From Hydrolagus colliei (Eukaryota), in NCBI GenBank assembly GCA_035084275.1, contig CM068750.1, positions 6,386,001-6,450,000 on the forward strand: DNA of 64,000 nt. The letters run 5' to 3'. The notes beneath the pieces are model-generated. The model had not been told where the DNA came from and did not search any database. It saw only the letters and a program-made list of their open reading frames with translations. The position numbers and the translations under genes are program-made. Position 1 is the stretch's first letter; every line of letters begins with the position of its first letter. This document shows, in pieces, positions 3,401 to 29,400 of this stretch.

Positions 3401-6400
3401 ATTAATAACCCAATTCAATGTCATGGATGTGTGCAATAGTCAAAACATCACAGATATTGAAATGTGAAATGCAAGATTTAGAAAATAACCATCAAAAACA
3501 GGTTTGAGGAAGATCCTAGGTTATATCTTACTCCATGATACACTGAGACCAGTTCTCAATTTACCTTAACAAAACACAAAATACTACAGATGCTGGGAAT
3601 CTGAATCAAAAACAAAAGTTGCTGGGGAAACTCAGCAGGTCAAGCAGCATCCATGAAGAAAGGAAAAAGAGTCAACGTTTCGGGTTTTTAAAACCTCTCC
3701 CTCCAAACAAGCCCCAGTTCTGACGAAGGGTTGACTCTTTTTCCTTTCTCCATGGATGCTGCTTGACCTGCTGAGTTTCCCCAGCAACTTTTGTTTTTGA
3801 TTTTCAATTTACCTTACTTTTTTTGAATATACACCTTTCTCTGCTACCCTAATTTCAAACCACACTAAAAGAGATTAAACACATTAACATTCTAGTGGGC
3901 ATAACTTGATGGAATTTCCTTGCACCCCATAATTGCAATAAATTGGTTCAACTAGGCTTCCCAGAATGCATCCACCACTGAGCAGTACTGTAAATGGAAA
4001 GTGCCCTTTGTCTTTGGTAATCATATCAGATCTATTTTGGAGCAAACATGCAACAACTTGCATTTATATAGCGCCCCCTCACGCAGGGTAGCAGCCTTGA
4101 GTGCTTGGAATAGAGCACTCTGCAACAGAGAAGGGGGCTAGAGAAGAAAAAAAAATTGCCCTTCTCATGACTGTCAGTAATGCCAAGTTCCATAAAGAAT
4201 TTACCCAACCCTATGATGGAATCCAGTTTTACAGGATTGAGACACAATCTGAACTCAGCATATTCCAAAGACATTCAGAATATGCAGTTTCCTCCATCCT
4301 CTAAAATATTCATTCATTGTACAGCTTGGGATACCTCCTTTTCACCTGTGGTGCTCAATGAACGTACTCCATCCACATGTCACTGGATCACCACTGACAG
4401 CTTGCCTGGTTATGGAATGGTGACAGATCTGCATTTCAATGTTCCCTCTCCTTTTCTTGCTGTCCTGCAAGAAAAGGAAAGGGAAGGCTATTAGCAGATG
4501 GAACTATGCTATATCCATAAGGCAAGTGTAAAGGCTAAATTATATTTGATAAACCCTAACAGTCCATTTATTTCCTCTCCCTTTCTCAGATCAATCCTTA
4601 AAACCCCATACGTGAATCATAGATATCAGGAACTCACCAGGTTGGGAAATACAAGCCCCATCGCACAATGGTGAAAAGTGTATAAATATTTATGAGCCAG
4701 CTTATGGCAACACTATTTGCGATTACAAAAATGGAAAGATGAAAATAAGCCAAACTAAATACTAACATTGGATAGGATTGTAATCAACTGATAAAAGGTA
4801 ACAAGTCAGCAGTAATAAAGAAAAGAGCAGAAAACTCCAGCATATTCACCACAAATTCCGTTTTGGGGTAGAACTGCTAATTAAGATTATGTTTACATTG
4901 ACACAATGAATAAGATAATGATATTTTCACTGTTGATTATCTTTTCATTCAAATTGAGTTTTGAATTTTACGGAATATTGAATTAGTGTATGAAAGTTAT
5001 CATTCGTCCCAAATTTACATGAAATGCATGTTCTTCTAACATAGGTTCTTTAACATTGGTAATTTTTTGTATTTTTGAGAAAAAGCTACTGTCTACCGAT
5101 TGTATGCTACAATATTTACATTTAATTAATTACATACATGCTCTATAAAATAGTCAGGAATTAGAAACAGCAAGAATCTTTTTCCTGTCAATAGTGAAAT
5201 ATTTATGAATGAAAGTAAATCATCGGTAAAAAGTTATGGATACTGTGTTTTAAGAAAGAAAAATCTTGACACATTTGTTTAAGATATAATAATAATCATC
5301 CTTGCATTTGATATAGCGCTTTTCATGTCTTCTAGACGTCGCAAAGCGCTTCACAGAATATACTGCAAAGTGAATTGAATGTACATATGTGGGTGTAAAG
5401 CGGCAGCCAATTGCGCACAGCAGTATCCCACAAAGTCGTAGGTGAACAGTCAGCACACCAATCGTCCTCTTAACTACAGTATATACTGAAGTGAAGTGAA
5501 ATCAAAGTTCTTAACAATGAATTAGCCACAATCATCCCAATTTCATCAGAAGCAAGTTAGTATTTTGATCCATTTACACTTTGGAAAAGTTAAGTTTTCC
5601 CTGTCTATAAGCAACTGTATCATAACAGTTTACATTTCTGTTTATACATCAACCTTGAAGTTCAAAAATACTTCTTCGGATTTTCTTTCCACTTACAATT
5701 CCTCAAGTAGCACTAAAGCTTACTTTCCCTCGAAGATTGAAAACATAAGGCACATTCTCAAGACAGGATGCAATTAAGATCACATATTGCTTTAATCATA
5801 TGCATTTTCTACCTTGCTACTCCAACTGAGAAGGATCAGCAGAATTAAACACTCTTTTAAAAAAAACATTTCTATTGCAGTTGCTCTTTGTCACTTTGCT
5901 TGGAAATCAACCAAGTATGTGGAAATTGCCTGAAGCTGTTCAGTCAAGAACTACTGAAAACTATTGCTATTACAACTACTTCAGACACTCCATTCCCTAT
6001 TCAGATTTTAAAGTTGCTTAAATTTTGCCATTTAAACTTAAAAGTTTTTCCTTGGGAGAAGTTAGATTCTGAATCTGGGTTATTAATTCAGTTTCCTTCC
6101 CTACTTTCCTTAAAGCAATGATGTAATTATGTGCTACAGGGCTATTATTTATGGCTCAGCCATAACACTCTTTCCTCTGAATCAGAAGATTGTGGATTCA
6201 AATCCCATGTCACTGCTTTGAGCTCACAATCAAGGTGGTTGGGGGCAGTGTAACGTCCGAACGTCTTTGGTTAAAATGAGAATATAATGATAAACTGAGA
6301 TGCTGTCTCACTTATAAGATGAAGTATTTGAAAATAAAAGCATTTATTTCTGGTGACCTGGCAAACAATCCGCCAGATTAAATATTGGTCATTCACTTCA

Positions 6401-7961
6401 CGGCTGTTTGAGAGACTCTTGCTGCCATGTTCAGCCTCACATACACACGGACTAAAGTGCTTTGAGAGGTTTTGACCCGATTTGGCACTGTATCATATAC
6501 AGTACAAGGATTTTGAGTATTTATAGGGTTGGGTCCCCATCGTTGATGGTGGATTCGTACTTGTATGAATGATACAGGAACACAATACAGAAGTCCAGTG
6601 ACACATCATTACCCAAATATGTCAAATGGTGCAAAGTAGGAACGTTTTGTATTAAACTGAAGTAAAGAGGTCAGAACACTTTAAAAATAGTTAATTCAGT
6701 TCAAAGGAAAACTAAATGCTTTATCTGAATATGCATTCCCAGATAGAAAGCTTACCAGCCGCAAGTCTTCCCTGTCCCTGTGGTAACCGTGAATAAGGAT
6801 CATGATTATGATCGAAGAATCTTTGGTCGTCACGGAAACGCTCAGCTAAGTGACGACGCCTTTGCCCATCATCATAATATGGGTCAGGATAGTAATACCG
6901 GGCACCAGGTTGACCAGCATCTCCGTTCTCTGAGTTTATTTCAGGTGGAAAGGATTGAGATGAGGTACCATATTCTCGAGGGACTTCAGACAGATTTCGT
7001 GGAATGTAGGAAGATCCCGAAGGCCTGCTGCTCTCTTGCCTAACTATTTCATGAGCTGGCCTTTGGATAGGACCTCGTAGAAAACTTTGGTTTCGGGAAA
7101 CCACCATATCACCAGCGGAAGGGTAAACAGAAGATCCGGTTTCTGCTAAAACATCAGTGCGCCTCGGAATGGTTGGTCCATGGCGGATAAATGAAGGCAT
7201 CAAATCTGTAATTAAGATAGTGGTGTTTAATTAAACACAGTTTAAAAAACAATTGGGAGATTAAACGTTTACATAGCACTTTCACAAGCCTGAGTTGATG
7301 AAGGGGAGGGAAAGCATGACCAAAATTAACAATGAATACTTGCATCAAGGCAAGTTTTGAAGATAAGGAGAAAGGGAGGGTGGAGAGGAAAGAAGATAAC
7401 TTCAGACATCAGCAAAATATCTCAAGGCTCACACACAAATGGTGGAGTGGACAAGCTGGGGGAAGTTAATCAGGTTGGTGTTTACTGAACAGAAACAAAA
7501 ACGACATTTGACCTCCAGTCTTTTAAGACGGATACCCTTCAATTAACACATCTTGCGGAGTCCTAAAAGGGTCAAACGCATTCCTAGAAAAATAAAAACA
7601 TCGCAAAGGCGGTGGTGGGGAAGCGAAGTTTAAGCAGCGACGGAGCCAACTGTCCCCTCAGGGATGGAGCGGTGGCGCCCGGGCTGCCCAAGGCAAACGT
7701 GCACATATTGTAGCTCACGTTAAACGTTAATTAATGTTCAAAGAAGAGTTCAGTGTTAAGTGTCGCTGGTCTCCTCGCTTCCCTGTCCCAGGTGAAGCAG
7801 CCCCGGGTTTCCACCATAACTCGGAGCACTCCCACCCACCCACCCACCCACCCCTCCCCTCACTTACTCCTCAGCATCGGAGACGTCTCCTTCTTGACAT
7901 ATTTCCCCTGAACCTCGGGCGGTTTGGACGCTTCGTTTTTACTTTTCTTCCTGGATAACAT
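253..7961 (-). CDS. SAV1: Protein salvador homolog 1 (Hippo scaffold, two WW domains plus SARAH), 5 coding exons, 389 aa
   Basis: Exons 7961-7868, 7205-6756, 2258-1988, 1497-1342 and 451-253 are all GT-AG with consistent phases (sum 1170 nt). They translate [14 protein letters not shown]...[16 protein letters not shown]...WW-WW...[31 protein letters not shown]...[10 protein letters not shown], recognisably SAV1. Confidence 0.97.
1342..1497 (-). CDS. SAV1: SAV1 coding exon 4
   Basis: cag acceptor, gtaagc donor; [17 protein letters not shown]...[17 protein letters not shown]. Confidence 0.95.
1988..2258 (-). CDS. SAV1: SAV1 coding exon 3 (two WW domains)
   Basis: tttag acceptor, gtacag donor; [30 protein letters not shown] and [30 protein letters not shown]. 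Confidence 0.96.
3569..3803. mobile_element. Non-autonomous Penelope-like element forming a foldback, with 13-bp target-site duplication
   Basis: Arms 3604-3676 and 3730-3802 are reverse complements with 1 mismatch in 73 bp; flanked by TCAATTTACCTTA at 3556-3568 and 3804-3816; carries broken CTGACGA and GAAACGTTGAC hammerhead half-motifs typical of Penelope termini. Confidence 0.75.
5285..5435 (-). mobile_element. 5'-truncated tRNA-SINE (L2-type tail)
   Basis: Reverse complement of the shared tail GTGAAGCGCTTT...GACGTCTAGAAGAC..GAAAAGCGCTATATCAAATGCAAGGA(TTA)n. Confidence 0.8.
6151..6512 (+). mobile_element. Degenerate Deu-domain-like SINE
   Basis: tRNA-like head (ctctgaatcagaagattgtggattcaaatccc), a body resembling 39133-39645 and an L2-type tail. 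Confidence 0.55.
6756..7205 (-). CDS. SAV1: SAV1 coding exon 2
   Basis: ttacag acceptor, gtaagc donor; [17 protein letters not shown]...RNQSFLR...GQGRLAA. Confidence 0.96.
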
Positions 7962-9690: not shown

Positions 9691-10262
9691 AAGCTGCTGC
9701 TCACTGCTCCTTCATAAAAGAAATGTGTAATTTTCCAATCTTTGTACCAATTGTATCCAGTTGTAATCTTCCCTTTCCCTTAAATACCATAAGACAGTAA
9801 CCTTTGACAATGACCTTATGAAAATGTGTCTTGAAAATAAACATTGAACAACACTGACCAAAATATACTGTACTAATAGCAAGTCATCTTTTGGCCTCCA
9901 AACTGGACAATGATTTGTGGTGTGGAATGAACCACAAAGGAAGAAATAATAATAATAATACTAATCCTTGCATTTGATATGTTCAAATTGAAAGAATAAT
10001 AGACTAGAGCCTATCCCATACTGTAATTTTATAGTCCCACCAATCAAAGAACTGTTAAATATGCAGAAACATCACATGGCATCTAAATTGTTTTTAATTA
10101 TTCCAACAATGCCAAGAATGTTCAATGTTGCTACTAGCCCTGCCTTACCTGGGAGCTATTAGCATGGAAGTGATACTCTAGTGTTAAGAATTTTTGAAGT
10201 GTGAATCCTTTGGTTAAATTACGGTTCTTTATAGTTTCAGTATTTTTTTCAACAATCAAAAA

Positions 10263-10272
10263 TTTATTTATT
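10263..10272 (-). terminator. Probable NIN polyadenylation signal (two overlapping AATAAA)
   Basis: Plus-strand tttatttatt about 1 kb after the NIN stop, followed on the minus strand by a U/GU-rich stretch. Confidence 0.55.
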
Positions 10273-11264
10273 CATAACATTAATATTTCTAACACAAATT
10301 GTAATTTCTATTCAGACATCATTTTACAACCATTGCTTTAAGCAAATGATATTCCCAAGCACCCCATTGATCAGCCAGGCATAAGATGTGTGGGTTAACA
10401 TATATATTTATGGCTTGCAAACATGACCTGCATCTATCCATACTGTTATGTTCAATATGGAGGTATGAATGTTGTTTTCTGTATTCAAGACAAATAACAT
10501 TTTTACAGGAACAATTACATTTTAGGCAGCATGATACATCTTGAAGCACCACATGGCAGCTGGTTTTACACAAGTGTAATAAATGTAAATGCAAATACTG
10601 TCACAGGTTTAATCTGATTGTTCTGCATAGTATAATCTCAAATAAAAACTCAGTATTTACAATTCTTTGACAAGATAGTGTTGCCTTTTTGTCAGTGTTC
10701 CACACTTAAATGAATAAACTATACAAACTATTTAAACATACTTTTAAATTATCAATAATAATATTCTGCAACTGGGTTGTATAAAAGGAAAAGTAGGCCT
10801 TAGTTCCAGCTACAGATGCACTTGTTTCCTCACACTAATATCACAAAAACTATTTTAATTGGCTTTGTTCCAGTCACATTAATCTTTGGCCTACACAGAA
10901 TGTTTAAAGACAAATCAAAACACATCTAACTCTTTATGCTTTTTTTTAAAAAAAGACAGCTTTATATAAAAAAACTTTTCCCTCATAAGTCTCTTAAAAA
11001 GTAACCGTCTCCTTCACGTGAGATTATTGAATATATCCTTAAATACTGAGGGGTGACGTATACCAGTGTTTTGAAGGCATCGGTAATACTGTTAAGGTTA
11101 GAGCAATATTTACTTTTCTCTCATTTTGCAATTCTCAAAACATTCAGAAGTCCAGGAAAAAGCAAGTACTTGCTAAAGGAATATTTAAAGTATAAAGTGC
11201 AAAAGTGTTTCTAAACATGTCCTTCTTTGGACTTTATCGTTTATGACCTTATTAATATAACATG

Positions 11265-11477
11265 TTAGGTTGAGTAACGAGCTGAGGCAGCAGAAAGTGA
11301 TGATGTTGATAGGTCCTTGAGAATTTTATTAAGGCCTGCAATATTTTCTTCAAGTAGGTAATTTTTCTTCTCAGTTGTCTTGTACCGCTGTTCGGATATC
11401 TCCAGTGCCTTGAGTAGCTGTGCGTTTTCAACATACAAGTCCTTGATCATTTCATCTGCTTTAATATTCTTTGACAT
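11265..11477 (-). CDS. NIN: NIN last coding exon
   Basis: cag acceptor; MSKNIKADEMIKDLYVENAQLLKALE...ARYST*. Confidence 0.93.
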   Translation of the reverse strand: MSKNIKADEMIKDLYVENAQLLKALEISEQRYKTTEKKNYLLEENIAGLNKILKDLSTSSLSAASARYST

Positions 11478-14400
11478 CTGCAAAGCAAAATTCTGTTATG
11501 AAAGTTTTCCCTTTGTTCAAAGGAACAAATCTAATGGTTATTTTAATACTAAACCATTCATTACAGGAACTTAGTTGTATACGAATTATACCTTTGTACA
11601 ATATTATTACACTCTATTGCTTGTTAAATAGGCATTGCTGTTTTTGTATTGTGGCTGAAACAAACACTCAGTTACTAATAAACAGTGAACATACCTGTTC
11701 TTTCAATTGATTGACTTTGTCCTGAAGATGTAACTTAACATTCCTCAGTTTATTTTCAACATCTTGCATTCTTTCTGTCCTTTTCAACAGTTGTTCATAT
11801 CCTTCCTGAAAGGAAAATATTTATTAGACTGATTTCTGTTTACAGTCAGAAAGAGAGGCAAACTGCATAAGAAATTGATTCACCCATAATCTGGGGAGGA
11901 ACTGGAGGTACCGTATTAATAACAATATTTTGCTTGGCAATGTATTTCAAAAAGATACACAACACATAGAATACACAAAAAAATTATCTTTATAATAAAA
12001 ATAAAATAAAGGTCCCCAAAGAATTTAGAAATCAATTGTAATGAAGCAAAATAGTTACTTGAAGCAGTCAGCTGAGTTAATAGTCAAATGTGATTTCACA
12101 GGCAAAGCAAAAACACAACTAGCTTGCACCTTTTTATGCAGTTAAGTATATTGGTAAGGATCTTATCGATCCACAGCAGACATCTCAAAAGTTTTAGTGC
12201 TTATCAAATGGTTATGTAAAAATCTTTGATTGTTCTCCACACAACTAGAAAGCGGAGGTACAAATAAGCTTTGCACAATTTGCATTAATTCACAGCAGCA
12301 TTGTACAGTACTGTACTTTGGTGGCAAACATTGAAGAAATGTGCAACATAGCAAATTACCGCAAATAGTATACCTAGTGAGCACAGGCTAGTGGTATGAA
12401 AATACATTTAGATGGACCCTGTCATGTCAGTACTGTAATGTGTCAGCTGGTTGAAAATAACTATTTGATTGTGTAAAAACAGTTTGGGTAAATCTTAGAT
12501 CCCGTGTACACAAACTAAGCCTTAGTAGTAATAATGCCTTTAAGGATCTAATATCTTTTATCTCGAGTGCAAGTTGATTTTTTCTTTTATTCAAAAACTT
12601 CAGTCGCAAGATTTCAGTTTGTCCAAGATATATACAAGCACAATTAATAGCTATCACTAATGTTCATGTGGCTTGTGATTATGACAAAAAAATCAAAGTC
12701 AGAGGATATCATTGTGATCAACAATGGATCTAGTTTTAAGTACCTAAATGTTAATAGCCAAAGTCTTCGCAGTTATGTTCCAATGATGGAATAGTAAGGC
12801 TTAGGTTATCAAACAATCAGAATTTGGTTCAAAGCACAGAAAGGGGAAAAGAAGGATAAAGTAGAGTTGATCACCTATATCTGTTCTCATACACCTTTTG
12901 GTAGTGGAATACACAGTGGAATTGACAGATGTGGAACAGAATGCCTTGCTGCTTAGCTTCTCAGCTAAGGATTGGGCTGTGGCACAATCATACTATGGGG
13001 AAAGTGCAATTGGCAAACGCAAAACATAGTGAACTGGTAGTGTATTGAGTAAAAGCTATACTGTCAGGCAAACATTCAAATGAGAAATCAGTCGGATGAC
13101 TACAGTACAATATCAAAATACACAAAAAATAGAAATTACAAATTTATTGTCAAAACAAAAGGTATAACAAAAAAAGATGCGTAGTCTTCTGAACAAACCA
13201 GATAGCTGGTAAACTGAAATCGTCATGAGGAAATATTACAACGATCTATCAACAGTGCAAAACCAACAAAGCAAAAGTTATAATTAAGGGAACGATGGAG
13301 ATCTATTAGTTGTTGTGTATTAACTGTACATAAGCACTGCTGTATTATGTGCCACACATAAATATGTATACAGAGAGGAAATTATGTAATAAATAGCAAT
13401 AAAAGGATTTATGAATTATGTAACTAAGTAATGATTTTCATTCATGTCATTTATTCATCCCACAATCCCTTTGCCTTGTCCCTCCCTTGCCTCCTTCTAG
13501 TCCAGTCACACGACCCTCCGTTTCAACCATGCCGTCAGCTACCATCTTGCTTCTGCCCTCCCTCATTCCAACTCCGCACCGCCCCCCCCCCCCCCCCCCC
13601 CCCACACACCCCACCATACTCGAGTCCTGACCAATGACTGTTCAGCACCTTGGGGCATCCTCCCGACATGAAAGGCGCTCTACAAATATAATTTGGTTGT
13701 TGTACATAATTTTGAGTACCTATAATGCATCTGTGTTTACACAGTGAATAATAGAGACATTGTGCCTTTATTAATTAGACCCCAATCTGGAGATTTGCAG
13801 CCTCACAGTGCCATTTAGAACAGCAGAGGTGGAATCAACCTTTACTATTGTTGAAACAGAGAAATGTTGCTAATTAACATTTTGCAGCAATTTCATATGC
13901 ATTATTTTCACTGAGGAGTTGATGGCTCAAAAAAAACTACTCAGTCCTGTTGTATCAATATCAAACACACACTAATTAGAAATTAAAAATTTATTGTCAA
14001 AACAAAGGTATAACAAAAAAAGACAATGCATGACAAATCAGGAAACCATAAATAACTACATAGAAAAGTTCAGTGTGATCTTTCAATTCAAATAGTGGGT
14101 CTGTGATGAATTTGTTGGAGACAGAAAATATAGTGTTAAAGCCTAAAATGCACAGAGTAACGGAAAGGAATGTTGTGTGTGAATGCATTTTACATGTTAT
14201 CAATCATCCATATTGCAGCAATACTGTCAATTATACTTTACTGCCTGGATGTTAGGGATACAACAAACAGTAGAAATTGAAGTAATGGAATTAAATTAGT
14301 GTATTTTATGTGGAATTGTAAACCTTGATGTACAATCCATAAAAGTGCCAGATATCTATAATGCTAGAAAAGTTAAATACTGTATTACATTAAATAAATT

Positions 14401-17400
14401 TTAACAATGTATATTACACATCAATGTCTTTTTTTCACATGAACTTACAGCTTTATTAAAGTACATTTCTACACCAAGAACATAATAAATTAAAAATAAT
14501 TTAGAACACTATTCTCTTCCCCACCCAATGCATAACCAAGGACAATAATTTTGCCCGGCTACTTATGAGAAACTGCTGTGTACTGTCAAAGACTTCACAA
14601 GTGCCCAATCCTCCTGTAGGTATCAGCATGCACAGCTCGCTGGTCCGGTAGCAAGGCCTACATAGAAAGAATGTAAGTGGTACACTTCACCCTGTAGTGT
14701 TTAAGAATTGACTCAAAATATCCCACACTACAACTACAAAAAACGGCAAATGCACGTAAAGAAACAAAAACAAACTGTATAACCACAACATCACATTTTA
14801 AATAATGAAAGGAGAGTTTCTGTAGCGTTTACATGGACAACAATGAAAAAAGTGATTATCAAAAGTGATTATCAAAATTGCACTATTATAGTCAACACTA
14901 CAGTATAGTCACAGTTTTGTGATTGCTTGCATTTTTACTGTACCCACTACAATAGGACTAGAGGCTTGGGCACTTCTCACTTGGAATGCTCTTTACCTGC
15001 TGTGTGTTGCTGTCAGCAGCATGTTTGTCCAGTTGTTCTTGCAGTTGACGACGCTGAACTTCCTCATGGCTCAGACGTTGCTGGAGCTGTGCTACTTGCT
15101 CTTGTGGCACCATGCTGCAGACCTGTTCTTTCAGCTGCTGGAGCTCACGGATATTCTGGGACTGGCTAAATGTCAGGCTCGAATTTGCATGTAGCAGCTT
15201 AGTATGAAGGAAAAGGAAATTAATAACTTGGATCAAATGTTTGCGAAATCAATCACTTAAATTGATGAGGTGCCCAAAGTATCTTTTGACCACACCTTTA
15301 GGATCAGTTTATCCTGATTCCTGATTTTAACAAAGAAAACTGACAAATTCTCATGTAGCTACATGAATAGCATTCAATTCACCAACAACATTCACCTTTG
15401 AGTAAAATATTTGTCTACGCACCACAATGGATTCTGAGGTGGGATGGGGAAGGGAAAGAGGTGGAGCAAAGGAAAGGGTAAAGAGACGGGCAAAGGAAAT
15501 CACAAGAAATACTGCGGACTCAAATAGATGCCCTGTTGTACCAATTTGGCAAATGTATATGAGGTATGGTATCAGTCATAATCTGGCACCGAATATGCTT
15601 TAGATTCAGGGGCTACTATTGGAAAGCTGTGCCATTTATTGGCTGAACATTATGACATTCATGCTACATTTCCAGTACTAAAAGGGTAACTGTAATGCTG
15701 GAATTGAACTATAATAAGGACATAATTGAAAAGACCCTAAATTTAGAAGCATTGTCAGAAACTTAAATAAAATCAAAGGGTCACAATAACACATACTAAA
15801 GAAAGTAAAATATCAAAAGTGACATGTGAAAAGCATCTTAAAGGTTTTCTAGAGTTATAAAAAGTAGTCAGGCTGTTCTGACTCAATTCATTTTATTGAA
15901 CCACATTTATTGTGAAGTTGTTTTTGAACATACCGTACATTACTGGGATTACTGAAGTGGCATTAGAACAAGGAGGCAAGTGGAAAGGATTGACATGGAA
16001 AACTGCTTTGAGCATAAACAGTCAAACCACAGCTGTCTGCAGCAATGTCAACTGTGATGTCTGATACAGACTAAAGTAGCAGCCACCACCGTCTCCTGTC
16101 TCTGCTGCAGACTCTCTAGGAAGCCTGTAGTTAATCAGTTCTCTGAAGTCCTAAGAACAGTTTGTTTTACACATGACTAGAGTCAGCTTTATACAAGATA
16201 TAACATAAAACTGTCATATTTTAGATCAGAAGAGATAGACTTGCAATCCATAGACCAAACTAACATATCCTTGTTTGCTTGAAAAAACATTTCCTGTCCA
16301 ACTGACATATGGCTAGACCACTCTGGAATCACATTGCAAATCCTGTTATTTGAGCGTTAAGTTGTTATCTTCCAGGAGACTTTGAAAAGATGACTAACTT
16401 CAGCGTGTGTAAAAACATTAGCCAGTTAGACCTGAATGGCCTGAACGGCAGCACGTCACATTCCAGATGACACTTAAACACACAACTGGGGAGATTTTGC
16501 ATTCCTGCCAGTTAATACAGATGGTTCTCTCATAACGCATTTTTACTGACGCAATCTTCCTTCCCTTGTCAGATATAAAAAGAACACAACGATATTTCCT
16601 CTCCAGACCAAACAACCTTCTCCAGCTGAATCACAGCTTATCCCCTTCTACCCTAAATAGGTGTTTCCCTGCCCGCTTTGAAAACTGATCAAAGGTCATC
16701 CTTTTGTGGCGTCCTCTAGCTCAGTGGTTAGAGTACTCGCCTCGCAAGTGAGAGACCTGGGTTTGATTCCCAGAGGGAAAAATGTTGGGTAAGTTTCCTT
16801 ACTCCACAATGCCTCTGTTTATCTAGCAGTAGGAACCCAGTTGTTATTCGTATTGCCTTTCTGGGCGTAATAATACATTTTTTATAAATTGGTCACTAAA
16901 TCCACGACTATTTATGGTTTGTGCAATTGGCTTCCATGTTTTGCCCCCCAAAAATAAATTTCAGTTTATATTCTGTGAAGCCCATTGAGCCATCTCAAAT
17001 ACCTGATAATACTAATCCTTGCATTTGATATAGCGCTTTTCACGTCTCCTATACGTCAAATCGTTTCACAGAATACATTGTAAAGTGAATTGACTGTATA
17101 TTTGTGGCGAACACACAAACTTTGATAAGGTGCTATATCAAAATGCAAGGATTATTATTTGTTTCAGACAATGAAAAGTCTGCTATGGATTTTCATAATT
17201 TCTGTCTTATTTAGATTTCCCTATTTGATTTTGCCCCTTAATTTTGACTGCTGTGACTGAATGGATTCTCCTGGAAACCTGCATTAAGGTGTGAAGAAGG
17301 ATGGCACAGAAACATTTGTTTTTGATACTGTACTTCTGCCACATTCTGAACAATATGTACATTTATCAAATGCTTTTGTCAGCAAATATGTTAAAGCTTG

Positions 17401-20400
17401 GAACAATACAAATTAGCAGGAAAGTCAACATGCAAAGTTGTGAAGTAGTAAATGTAAACAATATCTTCCTCAAGTACAAGGTATACAATTTCAACTACAT
17501 ACTTTATACAGTTCCAAGGAACAATGTCAGTCAAATGACAGCCTTGTAAACACTGTGATTATACAATGACAGAATTTGAAATGAAAAGCTCTATTGGCTT
17601 CACAAACTATCTTGGGCAGAGGACCAGGCCAATAAACCTTTCTGGTGCATCGTGTACCCAATTCACTTTGTTTTACATGCACATCAGTCATAAACACAAT
17701 GAATGCAAGAAAGAAGAGCTCAAGAACATAAACAAATGATTGGTTTCTGCTCATGCTGACCAGGAAATAGCCTACATAACACTTCTCCAAGGCGACTTGT
17801 GTGACTTTTGTGGGTAAATGCGTGGCTTAGATTGATATTGAGCCAATGGATTCAATCTCAGATAAGTTTCAGCGTCTTGGGACGTCCTCCCAATGTGAAA
17901 GATACTCTATCAGTGTAATTTTGTTGTGGTTGTCTCAGATTTGATGTCTGATCAGTGTTGTGTTAGCTGGTCTCTCAAAAGAGCAACAATGGGGAGCTCA
18001 AGAATACCAAATAAATAGAACATCAATTGATCACAAATTTCTTTCAGTTTTACCCAACATACCTGATCACTGGTCTCCATCAACTGGCTCTCCAGGTTGG
18101 CTTGGGTGTTTTGCAGCATTTCATTCTCTACTTTGAGGATTTCCAGCTCCTGTTCGAGTGAGCCCATCTAGCAGGAGAATGAATGCAGTTTCAGGACCAC
18201 ATGTAGATTCTACTCAATATTTCATTTGTGCATGATATTCATACTGGATTCGGATTGAGGGTAGATTGGCTACCATTCAATAGAGGTTACTTGAGCTCAC
18301 TATTTACGACCTCAAGTAGCCTCTATTATTGTTTAAAGAATCCCGTCTTGATATTTATTTCTTCCAGAGTTATTTCTCAGTCAACACTTTGAAAAATGTT
18401 GTTAAAAAGTCAACACTTTCATTTATTTTTCTCTGTACATGAAGACTGTTCACAGACAAATCTTACCTAAATGCAAGCATGCTTCCTTTCTAACTCTCTT
18501 GCCTCTCTGCCCTTCTAATTGGAAGTTCCTAGAAAGGAAAACAATCTTTTGTCTACTAATCATACACCTTACCTTCCTGTTGGCTGATAATAGTTCTTTC
18601 TGAATCTGGTCACATTCTCTCTTCAGGCTGAGTTTCTCCTGTTCAGCGGCTTTGACCATGGCAGATTTATTGTAGTGCTTCTGCTGTTTGAGGGTTAGAA
18701 GTGCAGAATCTAGATATTTGATCTGTCAAAACAAGAAAATAATATTATTATTCACTGTATATTTTTCATCGACGTATTAATTTTAACAAAAACATGTTCT
18801 ATTGAAATTTCACTGTGAACTACTAATGGTGTGGGATTTATGCATCCTACAATCCTTGCATTTTGATATAGCGCTTTTTCACGTCTTCTAAACGTCTCAA
18901 AGCGCTTCACAGAATATACTGTAAAGTGAATTGACTGTATGTTTGTGGGCGAAACGCAGCAGCCAATAGCACATAGCAGTGTCCCACAAACAGTCATGGA
19001 CTGAAATGACCAAGTTTTTTTTGGACGGATTATTATTAGGCCCGTGGAGTAAGGAAACTTGCCCAAGGTTTCGCCCAGACCTGCCTGGATTGAAAACACA
19101 TGTCTCACACTTGTGATGCGAGTGCTCTAACTACTGAGCTATAGGACTCCTCTTTTAACCCATACCAAATTAACCAAATCTCTGACCCTTTGAATTATTC
19201 AGTCCATTGGTTGGGTCACTACTCTGTGCAAACTAGCTGCCCACGTTTTTCTATAGATCAGAGAGTCCTCTGTAGGTCTGGTCGTAATCTTGCTCCTCGA
19301 AAGACAAATGGTTATTTGAACCCATGTCTAAAAGATGAAACAGGCCTTTGTTTTCAGTGGGCTACTTAGACGGATGTGTTTATATACAAATGTAACTTTG
19401 CTGTTTGTTTCTGCTGCTACTTTCTAGTTAGATGTGCCGATTCAGTTAGATGACAATGGCTGTTAGAAATGAGGCACAGTTACAGTCCTCCTTCAAGATA
19501 CAAAGCCATTCATTTTGAAGTCTGAAGGTGCTTTCTTAGGTACCTTCTCCCGGGCCTGCTGCAGCTCTCCTTTTGTGTGCTGAGCCTCTCTCTGAAGCCT
19601 CTCGTTCTCCTGCCTTAGCAGTTGTTGTTCCTTCTCCACCAGCCGAGCCAGGTCATCCCGGTACAGCCTCTTATGATTGTGTTGGAAGTCCACAGAATGC
19701 AAGTTCAGCTTTAGCACCTGATTCTAATAGAAAGATATCATGATCTTATTTAAAAATCAGAAGATTTGTTGAAGGCAACTGTATGGAAGGGCACCCCCGT
19801 TTTCGTTTTGTTAGATCTCCCCAAAGCATGAACCATTTCTTGGCTTACACTCATAGAACCACAGGGATTTACAGCATTTCACGTCTGTGTCGGCTCTTTT
19901 AAAGAGCAATCCTTTTAATTCTATGACAATACTGTGACCAACTGCTTAGCTGGAATGGAAGCATCTTCGAATGCCTCATCCTTTGACTGTCTCTTCCTGC
20001 CTGTGGGAACTTAGTGTGTTCTGACAGCGTCACTGTAACCCGCAACCAACCCAGTGGAGAATTCCAAGTAGGAGCGTCCAGTCCGTAGTGAATGAGAAAT
20101 GAGAAGCCTGTACCCATAAATAGGAAGCGGTTGCCTCCTCCCAACAATGGATGCTTGAGTATTGCTACTATTGTACAAGTTATTGTTGTACTTTTATTGG
20201 GAAGCATCAGGTTTCAGATTTTGCTCTTCTGAACAAACGTCCACAAGGTCAGGTTAGTTTTACATCTTGGGACGTCCTCCCGACGCGAAAGGCGCTCTAC
20301 AAACGCAATTTTGCTGCCGTTGTCAAAGAACGTTTCAGCCTTATTTGAAATGTTGCAGGCTACACATGACGGGATCAAGTAGAATTGATGTGGCATTGTA

Positions 20401-23400
20401 CCTCATCTTTGGTGGTCTGCAGTTCTTTGTGCAATGACACCACCTCCTGTTTCAAGGCCTCCTTTTCCTGTTGTGCGACGCGGAAGTCTGATTTACGTCG
20501 CGCTGCCTGGAGATGAGCACTTTGTAGGGTTTCGTCCAGACTCTTGATCTGGGAGATGAGACAAGGGGATTAAATTTGAATAGCAAAATTTCGGATGGAA
20601 AATTAGGTCCGATCAATAAGTTGAAGCCAGCGAAACTACAAGAATGGGTGTCTCTTATAAATAGAGATTTTAATGAATTCACAATTGAGAGAGCTGCACT
20701 ACAGTCCTGAAAAGGTGGGCAAAATATAACTTAAAATACTGCAATACCTTTTCTTGTGACATTGACTGCTGTGTAGCCAACACCTTCCCTTGTTGTTGCA
20801 ATGTTTGCTTCTCTTGTCTCAAACTGATTATCTGCATTTCCATGATGTTCATTTTGGCAATCTGTGTATAATAAGAAGCATTTGTTGATCAAGTTAGATG
20901 GCAATGGTTACATATTCCGTCTAAAACAAATGATATAAGGCGATTAACAGCGATCAATTAGTATTGAAAGTGCTTCAATGATTTCCATACCCTGTCAACG
21001 CAGCGGTTCACCTCATCACTTAATGTTTCTTTCTCCTGTATTAACTTTTCATTCGTACTCTTCAGAGAAGTGACCTCACTCTCCAGCTTATTACATTCAG
21101 ATAACTGGAGAAACAAGAAACTGCTGTTCAGCTTATTGAGAGACAAGGAAGTTCATTAATAACTGCATTAATGCAGAATCTATTCACAAGTGGTTTAAGA
21201 TCACTAAGAATGTCAACAACTATGAATCATCACTTCATGTAACTGTATGAAGCCAGTGTATTAATATCTGAACTGAACCACAACAATTCTCATATCTTTC
21301 AACAAATATTCTCACAATATCAGATAAGCAGAGAACTGCTTTGTGCAAAAGGACTAGAGTTACTAATATGAAGGCTTGGCAGCATCTTCAAATCACATGA
21401 GGAAAAAGCGCACAAATCCTTTTCCAAAAATATAATATTCAATGTTGTTATAAAGTACTGGGAGATGTGTGACAGTTTTTTTTTTTTTACACGTCAGGTT
21501 TATCATTATCAACACTGAAATGTATTATGTACTTAAAAAATAAATATCAACTGGCACAAAACCAACGTTCACTAAAGTGTATTCTCCAAATGGACAAATT
21601 CTATTTGTTATTAGAATTTTAAAGAAAGAGAAAAATGTATTTACAAAGAATCCTTTGGACAACAAGAGCTTTTCAAAATGACTGCACTGAAGCTTTGCGA
21701 GTCGCCTCTACCTGAATCGTCACGTCTTCGAGCTGTTCGCTGAGGAGAAGCTTGTCCTGTTCCAGCAGGTGATTCTTCAGCTCCATTTCAGACAAATCGG
21801 TCTCCAAAGCCGATAGGAGAGTGGATGACTGTCAGGAAATAGGCAAGATATACATGTAATGTCATGACTTCACCCAAAGCTCTGTTTTCATTCAGAGCAT
21901 CACTGGATGATAATGTGCAGCATCCGAAAGAGAAAGAGAGTGTAAACAAACTATCTCATCCGCAACAAATACACCTAGAAGACTATGCCACATTATCCCA
22001 CCCTTTTGGCTGAAAGTGGCTCTCTGATGAGAAGCAATTTCTGTCGCAAAATAGGAGCAAAGGATATGGAAATATTCTCCCTCACCCTCAGTTCTTCACT
22101 AAAAACACATTCAAGTAGTCAGTCAACTGTACGAATACTCCCTACAGCATGAAATGGGTATTGTAAATGCCGATTAGTAATTTGGATTTAGATATTAAGC
22201 GTTCAAAAGTCACTTTGAACGATTAGGCCACTATGGCTGGCTAGGAGGCAGTCATCACAATGATTTACCTCGGCTCGGCTGTTTTCCATTTCATTCATTA
22301 TTTGGGATTTTTCTTGCTCCCACTCTTCAAGCAGGTGCCTGTCCATTTTTTTCTCCTTCTGTCGCAGCAGATCAGTGAGCCGGCGGTTCAGATCCTGCAA
22401 GTCAGCTTGATTCTTAGAGTTTTTTTGGCAAAGGTCCTCGTTCTCTGCATCCAGCTGCCGATTCCGGGATCTTGTCTCCGCCATCTGATTTGGGGTACAA
22501 TTTGGAACAAAGGTTTTGAGAATGGTGGGCCACAGTCTATTAACTAATTGAGCAAGAGCACCACAGATATGGAAAGCAGTTAAAAGTCGTGACTCTACAC
22601 CTGCTGCAACTCAAACCAAGATGTTTAATACCTGGAAACTGCAAACACAAATAGCAAAATAGTTAACAATTCCTGAAGTCACAGTTGAAAGGATGTTTAG
22701 CAACAGTCTATAAATGACTTTCTTAAAAAAAATCAGACTTTTGGGGGAATTAGTATCAGCAAATGACCAAAAAAGATTAGTGCCTTCTCACAAATTAGTT
22801 GTAATTCTAAGATTATAGGCACCCTGCTCCAAATTTTTCCTGTCTTAATCACTTTGATACTGCCAGCATCTTCAAATAGATTGCCACTGAATTTAATTAT
22901 TAATCCCTCAGTTGCACAGGACCATGGATTAAAAATATTTCTGAACTTAACAAGTGACCTACATTTTAATATCAACACTGCATTATTCTACCTAGGATAG
23001 AAGTAGTAACATTACAGAATCAGGACTCCAAGCAGGAGCAGGCCTGTTGAATGATGAATTTCTCACATCATCATCATCCAGTAATAAAGCATTTTAAATT
23101 AACAAAAAGCACAGCTTACAATTCATACAAGGATCAGGATCCTGCTACGTAAAACCGCTCAGCAATTCTCTCATTCAAAACACTGTACCTAGTGTTTTAC
23201 GGTGAGAAGCTGTGCATCAATAGTGAACAGCTCCTTCAAAGAAAGATAGCTCGATAATATTCTAAATGTTGCAATTTTTACAGTTCATCCAAGTGGCATG
23301 TAGACTATATAGCAGGAACCAATATTTGAAACTTCTGAAAGTTTGAAATATTCTGAAATTATGAAGAACGTACCTGTTTGTTCAGCATTTCTATAATTCT

Positions 23401-26400
23401 CTGAGCAGTCATATTTTCAGCCTTTAAAATCTCCCCCTGTTGCCTGTAAAAAGAGAAACCCTTGTAAGTTTGCATTCAGCTTGATAATAAAGTAAGTGCA
23501 GTAGTTTGAAAGGTATAAACCTGGTTGTGCTGAATGCAAGCTACTAATAATCAAATGAGTACAGTAAAAGCCAGTTTATCTGGCACCCTTGGGACCTGGC
23601 CAATGCCGGTTAAAGCGCATGTTGTATGTTCAGCCGAAAACACACAAAAAATATTAAATTATTATTATTTTTAATGCATTTTCTGGATTAATTCCGGTTA
23701 ATTGAATGCGGACCTTTTTTTTAGGTGCCGATTATAGGGTAGTTGCGGTTGATCGGGATAAATGGGCTTTTACTGTATTATGAATGTAACACCGTCTCAT
23801 AAGTATTTCTAGGAACTTACATTAATTCCTGTTGCGCTTTATTCATTTCTGTTACTTTCTGATGAAAATTTCCTTCCTCTTCCATTTTACGTTTCAAGGT
23901 GGCATATTTCTCAGTGAGCTCTTCAGCTTCACTACTGTGTAAGAAAGAACGTTGCAAGAACAGGTTTAAACATGGTTAAGTGGCTAAGCCAGTCTGCTGG
24001 ACGTAATTTGATGAATCGGAAACTAAAATGCTTCATGCAAACTGACTGCAACTCCTACAAGAATATCCAAATTAGGTTGCGTTTGTAACATTTTCATGCA
24101 CATGTGTGCAATCTGAAAGACACTCACAGGGAGATGCAAAGGGTATGGTTACGATATCTCTAAATGTTTACTACTGAAACCCTAGAGGATAAACAAACAA
24201 TTTAGTTCTGCAATAAAATGTAACGGTGGATGACATCTTGTGGGGTGGTGGTGGGGAAAGAGATGAACATGCAAGTGAAAAATGGGTGACAAAGAAATCA
24301 TACAAGACTGTCATACAGAGACAATCAGGCATGCAGTGGTGCATTTCACTCAAAGACGAGGAACGGACAACACCTTTCTGACATGCTTTATGAAACACAC
24401 AAAAGGTGGTGCATTTTATACATTCCATAATATTCGCCACTCTATCTTTTCTTGCGCAGTTTAACATAAGCACTTGCATTCATCAACTGCTTTCCCTCGT
24501 TTTCTTACAGGGATAAAGTACCCATTCCCTGTATTAACATCCTTCCAACTCAACCTGCCAAATAAACACCACTTAGCAAAATACAAGTTGGTGGCCTGAG
24601 GGGGGTGGGGGGTGCTCAGGTTGGGGTGGGGGTGGAAGTGGAGTGCTCATGTTATTCAAAGTCATGAGTAAACGTTGTTTATATAGGGCAAGGAACGAGT
24701 TTAGGAATGCCAGAAGGTTGACCCAATTTTTGCAACTTAATGGTTTTTACACACTCTTGTCTAAGCGACAATTATCCTTGGAGAAATAGCCGTGATCTTA
24801 CAGAGACTAGTCTTGCTTTATGTCAGTTTCAGTGAAAACTACACATCTGATTAATGGCCTGCTAACAACTTTTGCTTTTAATGAATCAACTTTGTGGGAA
24901 TGAAAGCGCAATTGACATTCATAATGACGTTGGCAGCAATTTTTTAAGAACAGAATGTCCAAGCATTTACTTGGAGACTTTTGCATTCAACAACAGCAAA
25001 AAAGAAACAATTTCAAGCATTCAGACACCACAGGCATGATGCATATCAGTGCCCCCCCAAATAAATGCACCACCTCAACCCATTATCGGTTCCAGGCTTA
25101 CCACATCTCACAGCAGAAGTCAGCTGTCCATGCATTTTGGAAGGAAAAAGCATTAGAAATTAAATTGTTAATTGTAAACTTTAGCCAACTAAAATTTCTT
25201 TTTTTTAACAGCAAAATAGCTTCTCACAAATGACAGGAAATTTACTGAAACCTCACAGGTCAAACATGACCATTACCTGTTGACTCTAGCCTGACGTTCC
25301 ATCTCAGTAGATTGTGCTTGTAACTCAGCCATGGCAGCCTTCAACTCAACATTCTCTCTCTCAGTTTGAGCATTTTTCTTCTGTAATGCTAGAGTGGACA
25401 ATACGTTCTCTTCCAACTCTTTAGTTCTCTCTTTCAGACTGACGTTCTCTGCAACTACTTCTGATCTTTCTCTCTCAGACTCTACATGTATGTTTTGTAA
25501 ATCTTTAAGAAATACAAGCTTCTCTTCTAACCTTTCCGTCCTTACTTGGAGTTCTTGATGCTGTTTGAGTATTTCAACCTTCTGGGATTGATGCAGCTCT
25601 ACAGTGGACTGAAGGATCGAGAGTTCCTGGGATTTTTCTTCCAGTTCCCTTACCCTCTCTTTCAGACTCAGATTCTCTGAATTTCTTTGTGCTTTTTCTT
25701 TCTCAAATTCTTGCTGTGCTTTCCCTATGTTTGTCAGAACAACGACTTTCTCTTCTAACCGTTTAGCTTTCTCCAGCAGCTCTACATTTTGTTTCACTAT
25801 TTCTGCCTTTTCGTCTGTAAGAATTTCAATGGTATTTTGTAGGCTGACAAGCGCCAATACTTTCCCTTCTAAATCTTTAGTCCTTTCCTGCAGCTCTAAC
25901 AATTCAGAGCTCATCTCCTCGTTTTCCCTTTTCACTTCCTCATGAACAATTTGCAGCTCTGCAAGAAGCAGAGATTCTTTTTTAAGTTCTTGTGCCTTCT
26001 CCTGTAGTTGGCTGATCTTGCCGTTTAACGCTTGATTTTCCCTCAACAACCCTTCATTGATTTTCTGTGCGGCGCAAAGGGTCACTGCGTTCTCGAATGC
26101 ATCTTTCGTCGCCTCCTGCAGTTTGGAAAGTTCAGATCTCATCTCAGCTCTTTCTCTCTCAAATTCTTCCTGTGACACGTGAGGTTGTGCAGAAGCCTCT
26201 GCTTCTTCCATCATTGCCTTATACGTTTCTTCCAAGCTATGTCTCCTCAAGTTCAGTGCCGCTTTCTCCTCTTCAGATTCTGCTCTTACCTTCTCAAGCA
26301 ATAACCTCAACTGCTCCCACTTCCCCTCAGCCTCAGTCAACTGTTTGTCCTTCACTTGTAATTGTGCTTCCATTTCCCTTTTTAGACAAATCAGTTCATT

Positions 26401-29400
26401 TGACAACTTGCTCTCTCTCCTGGAGGTAGAGGCTTGTAACTCCTTAATTTCTTTCTGAAGCTGCTGATTTTCGCACGCAAACTTATTTAATTCTTCTTTT
26501 CCTGATTTTTCCACAAGTTCCCTCTCCTGGGCTATCGTATGAGAAAGTAGGGCTATTTTGTTTTCCAGCGCATCCTTTAGTCTCTCCTTTTCTTCTTCGT
26601 ATTCCTGTTGAATCTCCTCCTTTTCAAATTCCCACTGACCTTTCTTTTCCCAGAGCTGATCGCGGAGTTCCATAATTTCTTGTTGGTATTTCTGCTCAAC
26701 TTCAGACCTTTCTGCTTTGAGTTTCAGCATGATGTTTTGATGTTCTTTAGAATAGTGGGCTTCCATCTCTGAAATCTTCTGTTTAAAATCATTCTCCATG
26801 TTTTTCCTACGTGATGAAATGTCACAAATATTACTCTTTTAAAAGAAAACAATTTTTCATTACGATACAAGAAGCAAACCGTTATCTGAAGGAAATATCC
26901 TATGGAGTGTGATGTTATGGAGCCAGGAATTTAATGCTGTCATTGAATGCTAGTCATGTTGGACACTCCTGTGCGCTTTAAATATTTCAATAACTTAATT
27001 CAATGTCATTCCAGGAAATCCACTGGGAATAAATGACAATAATAATCTTTACATTTGATATAGAGCCTTATCAAGCCGTTGAGACATCTTAAAGTGCTTC
27101 ACAGGATATATAAAATGGATTGAATGTATATTTTGTGAGCACATTTCTCTTACAAACTAGCTAGACAGACAGCAAAGATCATTCTGAATCTCCGCACATT
27201 GCTTCAGTTCTCTTTTTCCAATTAAACAGTGGAATTGAAGCCGTTTGACCCTCAATCAGAAAATTCAACAGTTGAGCAAGAAAATGTTTACTCAAGTTTA
27301 CAGTTGCCATTTCTACATTACAATTAGTTAATTTTTTTTGATTCGTAAGATAACTAATAACCTAAAGCTAATGCATTTGTTTCAAATCAGTCCCACAGAG
27401 GAAGAAATACACTCACGTGTTCCTCCCTATGATTCACGATTAACTTTCTAAATCTATTAGGCCTTTGATGACGGTTACAAGGGCCTCACCTTTGCTCAAG
27501 AAGCTCCTTTTGCTTTCCTTCCAGGAGATCTCTTTGCACCTCCTCTTTCTCCTGCGTCAGGTTTTGCTCGATCTCAGAAATCTGTGTCTCGTAGACCTGT
27601 TGCAGTTCAGCTCTCTCTTGTAGGAATGTCTCTGTCAGTTCTTTTTTTTGTGTCTCCATTTGCATTTCAGCACTTTTCTGCTTTTCTAGCAGTATTTCTT
27701 TCTCTATGTGAAAAGACCTTCTCTCTTCGTCTAATTTCATCCTGAGAGTTTCTTCGTGTTTTTGCTTGAATTGTTCCTGCAGTTGACGTTTTTCTTCATG
27801 AAACCAATCCCGCGCTGCCCGTTTCTCTTCTTCGCACTTGTATTTAGTCGTTTCCTGCAGCAATTTAACGTACTTGGTCTCTTCTTGGAGTTCGGAAATA
27901 TGGCTTTTGAGATCATCTATTTGTTTTTCCATTTGGACAATATCTTCCTTGCACTTCTGTTTGATGGTTTTTCCCTCCGTTTCATATTTGAGTTTCGTCT
28001 CTTCTATTTGTGCCTCGTAAAAATGTACCTGGAGAAAATGTGGAAAAACATTGAGATCATACACTACTCCAGAGAGCTTTTATAAAAAAAACACACACTA
28101 TATGAGCACAAAATACGTTTGCACCAATTTTCAACCCAAGAAAAAAATGTCACCAGGTGTGAAAGACCAGTGATGATAGCAAATTAGTATATTTTATAAA
28201 AGATAGGTATTGCATAAGCAAATGTGATGATCAAAAGTATGGATCACTCAAATGCTTAAGTAGGCTATTTGCATGTGTAAATCATGAGTAGATAAGAGCG
28301 CATTTTGTCAAAGATCCTCTGAGTCTCATTGTGACAAGATAATTTGATCACCAAGATATTAATTAGCCGTCAAAATAGAATTACGAAGAATACAATTGTT
28401 TGAACAATGCACAGTATTTCCCAGAGAAACCAATCATTTTAGCCTTGAAGCAGCCAAATCTTTTCTATTAATAAATTACATCGCTTTGAGTCTGTCCGAT
28501 TTACTTGCCTTGGTTTCAAGGTCGACTTTCAAACTATCAAATGCCTGGTGATGTTGCTCTTTGATTTGCTCGATGACCATTTCTGCCTCAAGACTCAGAT
28601 TCAATGCATTACATTCTTCAGTTTCAAGTCCTGGAATAGAACGATAAAGAATTTGCTCAACAAGTTAGACGAATGCTTATTCGTGAAAATGTTTCTAAAT
28701 TTTATTTTTGCCCTGAGAGGGAATTTAAAAAAAAATTGTTTTAACATAAAGCACAGTTTAAAAAAGTTCAAAAACTGACTTTGCTGCAACAATTAATTCT
28801 ACATTAATACCATGCATCAAAGGAGAGCAAAGTGGACAAAACATCATAGTTCACATCGATTGGACAAACCGCATATTTTCATATTGACTAAAAGTATGAT
28901 TCCTAAAAGCTTCCCCCATTACAACAATCTATCCTTGAATATTGAGTGACAACTTGATAACACTACAACACAGACATACTTTTCACACTCCCAAACGGTA
29001 TGTCGAGTGTGGTTGAACATTGCAATTCGTCAAATGATCGTCAAATGCTTTGAGAGCTTGCTGCTGTACCTTGATCACAGTCCACCATGCCAGTCTGGTT
29101 ATCCATTTCGTCTGACAATGAACTTCCCCAGAGTTGTTTGAAACTTTTATCGTGGGTCTGATATGCTTGTAACTCAGACTGGAGCTCATCAATCCGATCC
29201 TGAAGCTCCTAATTTAGGCAAGGAGATTCAAAGCAGTGAGCGCACACCCGTCCAGACAGAACAATCAACTTTACCTGATAATGGTACAACAAGGAGTGGC
29301 CAAGTTGTGTTCTTGTCAGTTTCTAATACTGAACTCTTACAAACAAGTTAATTGCATTCCCACCCTTTTCATCTGGGAGCTACATCTGCCTGCAAACCCA

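Follow-up and report, generated by a model that had tools for sequence, protein, structure and literature searches.

A 20-residue alternative tail of ninein shared by a chimaera and mammals is probably not encoded by the neuronal switch exon

The 64,000-nt stretch of Hydrolagus colliei DNA analysed here (hereafter the window) carries NIN on its minus strand, with the first coding exon near 59354 and the last at 11477, and within this gene the exon at 14657-14595 is likely to work as an alternative last exon. Taken as a whole, the explanation that we favor, and believe to be probably correct, is that of an alternative last exon encoding a shared 20-residue tail and distinct from the neuronal switch, based on sequence, phase, orthology, annotation, an unspliced RNA-like contig from a related chimaera, and a spliced junction in a bird-like contig. 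The exon itself is already known, being annotated from elephant shark to human, and is therefore no discovery. What is new is a homologue of the 61-nt neuronal exon at 17767-17561, devoid of splice sites, which represents a lead worth following. Our contribution is hence a correction of the identity of the tail exon, which cannot date the neuronal centrosome switch, and a testable lead, in the upstream counterpart of exon 29 that could do so, on when neurons began releasing ninein from the centrosome.

The tail exon and its signals

The exon map of NIN, obtained by tblastn with shark and Callorhinchus milii proteins, places the tail exon, in phase 0, after a common exon and ahead of the two final coiled-coil exons. 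Its coding part (14595..14657, minus strand) reads ALLPDQRAVHADTYRRIGHL in frame 0 and then TGA, and the same tail is present in C. milii models. The preceding 3' splice site (14658..14679, minus) is made of a branch-like CACTTAC/CTTAC (CTTAC at 14677), a pyrimidine tract and TAG, and an RNA-like contig of a relative begins exactly at this AG. The upstream common exon, equivalent to mouse exon 30 (14997..15197, minus, 201 nt), ends in the phase-0 donor CAG/GTAAAG, while the canonical penultimate exon (11695..11805, minus; mouse exon 32 equivalent, joined in X3 contig 16) and the coding part of the canonical last exon (11265..11477, minus; mouse exon 33 equivalent, with a UTR to about 10130) lie further downstream, the former being bypassed when the tail exon is used. 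An Rbfox-type UGCAUG sits across the V-H-A codons (14627..14632, minus) and is seen also in the bird-like contig L002 (at 2976) and in a two-frame reading of the barbet sequence. An ACUAAU is found at 14295..14300 (minus), and we judge it to be background, as ACTAAT occurs 24 times on the gene strand in 64 kb and the chance of one within 500 nt downstream is about 17%. L002 has an ACTAAT at a similar distance (+293), and the 3' flanks of the tail in the window and in L002 do not align significantly (28/200 shuffles).

The initial annotation had described the in-phase exon, its good acceptor, the peptide, the UGCAUG, the ACUAAU and a distant GTAAGT, and all were found as described. Two elements were unmentioned there, namely an AATAAA at 14457-14452 (minus) and a weak donor, TT/GTGAAG, overlapping the tail stop (14599/14598). 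The GTAAGT lies near 14448, with no strong donor between it and the tail stop, and GCAUG is absent between 14631 and 13532, or about 1 kb 3' of the exonic UGCAUG. The tail exon is single copy in the ~1.0 Gb genome. A contig from a DNA-like run, possibly of the source sample, spans 13674-16740 with one differing letter and no gaps relative to the window, and the region of the tail stop thus contains no indel error. The idea that a T lost after the tail stop masks a GTAAGT donor was dropped, given the ungapped contig and the fact that birds read through.

Other elements of this intron were recorded as well. A 70-nt direct repeat (13108-13177 / 13956-14023, 90% identical) holds an AATAAA on the gene strand in each copy; only these two copies were found in the genome, and they are possible further poly(A) sites. 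Also 3' of the tail exon, a strong-looking acceptor and a 63-codon open frame are located at 12992-12800 (minus), where RNA-like cover is low (bins 11912-13119).

Orthology and age of the tail

The tail is orthologous to the mammalian tail and originated before the split between cartilaginous and bony fishes. It is identical (20/20) to the ends of two C. milii UniProt models, matches 17-19 of 20 residues in eight shark species, all eight species retrieved having such an isoform, and 18/20 in birds, turtle, caecilian and four human RefSeq isoform models (P0108-P0110, P0113), which agrees with the figure of about 18 of 20 given for mammals in the initial annotation. Of 175 proteins in the NIN set, 102 end in the tail, and 75 of these carry the commonest tetrapod form, to which the window tail is 18/20 identical. 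Holders of the tail include a holocephalan, eight sharks, a frog (a bullfrog protein), a caecilian, squamates, a turtle, birds and mammals, and the deep conservation previously proposed is thus borne out. Within the cartilaginous fishes, the tail ends 8 of 26 shark proteins (8/8 species) and two of seven C. milii models, and all ten retain the large exon discussed below. A profile search with the tail gave five matches: two unrelated repeats, one bullfrog sequence and two further records. Among the 120 of 139 matches listed, the tail was not found in named ray-finned or jawless fish, which is weak evidence. Pfam has no family for the tail, and no copy of it was found at the paralogous locus on contig C3, where a paralogous last exon (L004, G000:C3:101401935-101402120) is 47% identical; we take this paralogue to be probably ninein-like. 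Three records (P0179, P0180, P0182) have divergent tails, one reading past the usual stop and two with T before His, in which the UGCAUG would be lost.

With 90% identity, the tail ranks highest among the 23 exon segments compared. The earlier statement that it lies far above the flanking exons holds for the upstream exon (40% to human and 44% to bird; 93-95% to C. milii ninein and 78% to a bamboo shark), but not for the two downstream exons, at 76% and 66% to bird, while the best other exon reaches 87%. The exon had also been called hidden, which it is not, since UniProt and RefSeq models already contain the tail; none of the papers listed in our literature search, with subscription journals and bioRxiv supplements outside its reach, deals with the tail in cartilaginous fish. 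The depth of this conservation is a good reason to ask about the role of the tail or of its RNA.

Compared with mouse exon 31 (ISO2/ISO3) and the C-terminus of human isoform 1, the chimaera exon shares its position between exons of ~200 and ~112 nt, a 20-aa tail (18/20 with human) with its own 3' UTR, and the replacement of 107-108 residues. It differs in its length of ~255 nt, an apparent value reflecting a shorter UTR, against 523 nt in mouse, and in having D for E and T for S. One could argue that the exon is an unused relic and that database models are mere projections from human, and the messy Ensembl-type models of C. milii would fit with that. Such a reading is largely refuted, however, and we regard it as scarcely credible, given 90% identity across the depth of jawed vertebrates, the shark tail isoforms (RefSeq in the clusters of seven sharks plus one found in UniRef only), the RNA-like contig and the spliced bird-like contig.

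Transcript evidence

Three runs (X1-X3) whose RNA nature is guessed, from one study of a related chimaera with tissues given as codes, were mapped along with one DNA-like run on positions 10100-28200 of the window. In X2, a 267-nt contig at a depth of 11.8 starts at the acceptor AG (14659) and stays unspliced as far as 14403. It extends some 190 nt beyond the stop and 49 nt beyond the AATAAA, and 14403..14594 (minus), also matched by a mouse ISO2 primer, is likely to be the 3' UTR belonging to the alternative last exon. The depth of the canonical 3' contig of X2 is 51.6, the rest of the tail bin is at ~2 (by hand arithmetic) and the next bin downstream at 0.95, contig depth being a poor measure of expression. 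In X1 and X2 a separate contig covers the upstream exon and stops at the donor of that exon, the pattern that branching paths would give, while X3 shows one canonical contig and X1 cover on the tail is slight. Among the 15 of 3967 joint rows listed, where SINE-like repeats dominate, the joint between 14997 and 14657 was not seen. Independently, in L002 the tail follows the upstream exon with nothing in between, and the next 2.1 kb contain neither a GTRAG donor nor the canonical exons. The SINE-like repeat family is abundant in this region (16700-17140, 18851-19158, 27028-27141 and elsewhere) and highly represented in the RNA-like runs.

The mouse ISO2 cloning primer, whose location appears to be in the 3' UTR, matches window positions 14512-14490 with a score reached in 1/400 random windows. 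Out of five mouse primers compared with the chimaera intron, this was the one good match (1/400), another was weak (10/400), and three had no match, including both primers for "exon 29a". The contig, the L002 read-through and the terminal nature of mouse exon 31 together make it likely that the earlier guess of a terminal exon was right. A different reading would have the exon act as a poison-like frameshifting cassette, spliced on to 11805 through the weak donor at the stop, as TT/GTGAAG at 14599/14598 would permit, with the next exon in that frame stopping after seven codons. We find this very improbable, as the X2 contig continues past the stop without being spliced, L002 and the barbet model likewise continue and have no GT there, and the mouse counterpart is terminal.

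According to the alternative last exon explanation, splicing from 14997 to the tail acceptor and early polyadenylation, presumably with AATAAA 14457 as the poly(A) signal, would replace the ~107-residue C-terminal coiled coil in a minority of transcripts that would depend on the sample. If what is known from mouse can be transferred, the CEP250/C-Nap1-binding tail would be lost, and such loss might tune centrosome cohesion and Golgi and actin roles, though it would not in itself take ninein off the centrosome. Among the points against this explanation, the X2 contig ends 49 nt after the AATAAA, a long distance, and there are 25 tetrapod proteins of less than 1500 aa (one of them partial) that bear the tail, most of them lacking the large exon.

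Relationship to the neuronal switch exon

The initial annotation had identified the tail exon with the Rbfox- and QKI-regulated exon that moves ninein off the centrosome in neurons. As a reading of the tail exon itself, that of a neuron-specific, Rbfox-driven centrosome-release switch as old as jawed vertebrates appears unlikely to us, and the tail exon is probably not the neuronal switch exon. The neuron-specific Nin exon 29 of Zhang et al. (2016), in fact, is 61 nt long according to PMC11422218. In the exon table of that paper for mouse Nin, exons 29, 30, 31 and 32 measure 61, 198, 523 (terminal) and 113 nt, and its coordinates and primer put the 61-nt exon 29 upstream of the 198-nt exon, and exon 31 at the position of the tail. 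The mouse counterpart of the tail exon would hence very likely be the 523-nt terminal exon 31, a mapping that relies on position, length and the rat and human proteins. When translated, the exon-29 primer given there corresponds to the NSVVG exon, which is found in rat and bird isoforms that soon stop. Exon 29 and the tail exon are both part of Nin, and either one leads to loss of the CEP250-binding C-terminus; exon 29, however, is one exon upstream and acts by frameshift, whereas the tail exon is downstream of it, keeps the frame, and lacks a donor at nt 61 that would make it an internal frameshifting cassette. Our literature search, with the reach given above, returned no match for a Nin 61-nt exon, nor for Nin exon 29 with Rbfox.

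The localization of the mouse isoform does not support the earlier claim either. PMC12135376 reports that an intronic acceptor gives mouse ISO2 a C-terminal end of 20 aa unique to it, along with a different 3' UTR, that a macrophage line produces ISO2, which has both exon 18 and the tail, at some 1/9 of the canonical form, that in macrophages GFP-ISO2 bearing the 20-aa tail localizes to the centrosome, and that ISO2 is dispensable for centrosome cohesion and Golgi positioning while it matters for actin recruitment.

With regard to regulation, the support for a neuronal switch in the tail exon comes in part from nomenclature. "Exon 29a" is neuron-included via Rbfox and "29bc" progenitor-specific in PMC6429586 and a citing review; Hayakawa-Yano 2019 has "exon 29a" neuron-included and Rbfox-dependent, and by numbering "exon 29a" is probably the terminal tail exon. 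The direction of Rbfox action is given in a conflicting way in PMC12221596. Further points in favor are the conserved exonic UGCAUG, the use of the tail varying by sample in X1-X3, the in-frame skipping of the large exon by C. milii model P0005, and an X1 contig break after the exon that precedes the large exon. An activating (U)GCAUG, however, stands downstream of the exon that it regulates, and exonic Rbfox sites usually repress; the chimaera exon has the exonic site only, with no GCAUG in ~1 kb downstream. In counts from adult mouse brain, the density of exon 31 is close to half that of exons 29, 30 and 32, a rough estimate with assumed read length, and all 26 shark proteins retain the large exon. 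As for QKI, its motif is at background frequency here, and in PMC6429586 Qk cKO leaves "exon 29a" unchanged and reduces exon 18, on which QKI acts; the QKI regulation proposed earlier is therefore not supported.

The tail may nonetheless be enriched in neurons. The Ensembl neuronal transcript ENSMUST00000220689, as tabulated in PMC11422218, contains exon 29 but not exon 18, and exon 31 is its last exon; as rat proteins put the frameshift stop before exon 31, the tail would be untranslated in this transcript, and exon 31 may be neuron-enriched as 3' UTR. In the explanation that we favor, the tetrapod neuronal switch consists mainly of the upstream 61-nt frameshifting exon and of exon-18 skipping. 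If the tail exon is not the neuronal switch exon, the age of the switch is not deducible from it, and the earlier proposal of a progenitor-to-neuron switch predating the cartilaginous/bony split does not follow.

Constraint on RNA and peptide

Strong constraint on the peptide or the RNA, as suggested in the initial annotation, is supported. It is conceivable, with chances just short of even, that selection acts mainly on the RNA, in the form of splice and Rbfox signals and structure, with the peptide largely a by-product of truncation, which would be compatible with the alternative last exon explanation. Relative to L002, the tail is identical at 51/60 nt and the upstream exon at 115/192, and synonymous third positions are kept in 13/17 and 14/28 cases, respectively, although the difference from the flanking exon gives a Fisher p of 0.073; the barbet sequence, read in two frames, keeps 14/18 synonymous third positions (p = 0.015 against a baseline of 50%). 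No difference is seen in the first 14 nt, which include the CTA and CCG codons, and non-conservative changes such as L/P, Y/C, R/Q and H/R occur, but the 14 tail variants all share HAD and RRIG. His is preceded by V, M or L, each of which can keep UGCAUG, and never by I, but T before His is also on record. UGCAUG is kept in both birds, where V-H-A codons would give it by chance 1 time in 8.

A GC-rich intron arm (14961..14975, minus) is complementary at 14 of 15 positions to exon 14613-14599, and the predicted 14-bp helix, which would enclose the acceptor, has a core pair probability of 0.55-1.0; it is, however, a post-hoc pick, reached in 0/1000 shuffles but in 15/1500 (1%) random window pieces. 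Such a helix (14961-14975 / 14599-14613) would pair the 3' end of the exon with the intron just after the upstream donor. Also counting against selection mainly on the RNA is an ISO2-specific knockdown with its own phenotype. Altogether, constraint at the RNA level is suggested for the tail exon.

A counterpart of the 61-nt neuronal exon

About 3 kb upstream of the tail exon, 17767-17561 is a recognizable counterpart of exon 29 without the usual splice sites. In L002 the 61-nt exon is at 323-383, with GCAUG at +31 and +350, and a blind HOXD70 alignment of L002 1-2758 with the chimaera intron 18059-15201 gave its best match between L002 225-418 and window 17767-17561. The single-copy homologue and flanks (17561..17767, minus) have a 73-nt core at 17670-17598. 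With 100-nt flanks its score was reached by 0/300 shuffles and 0/300 other window pieces, and the comparison of whole L002 with the whole intron by 0/30 and 0/30 controls; the exon alone was borderline (9/300 and 10/300; 17/200 with a first, simpler DNA scoring), significance being limited to HOXD70 scoring with flanks. A tblastn search with NSVVG peptides did not pick it up. The 73-nt core gives the same frame shift as 61 nt and both versions end in IVCE, but AA and CC stand in place of the orthologous AG and GT, and a DNA-like contig (17134-17894) shows no differences over the homologue. If the first AG following the pyrimidine tract (17667) were used, the exon would open with a TGA in frame, and a weak donor located 28 nt further would also shift the frame. 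Three GCAUG (17756, 17680, 17433) fall within 330 nt, against a background of 0.7/kb (p ~0.002, post hoc), and X3 contig 17 lies over 17526-17669 at a depth of 3.7 with unaligned ends. A possible 28-nt, stop-first microexon is seen at 17665-17638, with a UGCAUG just upstream. None of the 26 shark proteins has an insert at the exon-29 junction, which is moderate evidence, since short isoforms cluster apart and the finding rests on 12 candidates.

In this genome, the 61-nt exon would thus survive only as a homologous element without orthologous splice sites. A stepwise origin of the switch can be envisaged, a scenario that we advance tentatively and to which we assign a somewhat less than even chance: the alternative last exon would be ancestral to jawed vertebrates and largely RNA-constrained, while the chimaera 61-nt exon would either be devoid of splice sites, being not yet exonized or lost, or have turned into the 28-nt microexon, putting a stop directly after the preceding exon.

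The large exon and neighboring sequences

The equivalent of mouse exon 18 (25277..26806, minus) is a 1530-nt exon of phase 2-2, skippable in frame. Like its 2121-nt, QKI5-promoted mouse ortholog, it is large and frame-preserving; unlike it, it is followed by an intron with no ACUAAY but with five UGCAUG, and its skipping is seen in only 1/33 chondrichthyan proteins, a homology-type model, being one of the seven C. milii models. The five UGCAUG (24039-25134, minus), out of 23 on that strand, fall in the intron of 1.3 kb that follows the large exon (p ~0.005, corrected), and four of them lie just upstream of a ~42-codon exon starting at 23934 that Chiloscyllium plagiosum isoform X2 skips, making it a candidate Rbfox-repressed exon. 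The RNA-like contigs of the related organism have 12 extra bases in the exon at 23882 relative to the window. Downstream of NIN, at 1341-7230 (minus), lies a WW-domain gene, presumably SAV1, which would match the neighborhood of NIN in mammals.
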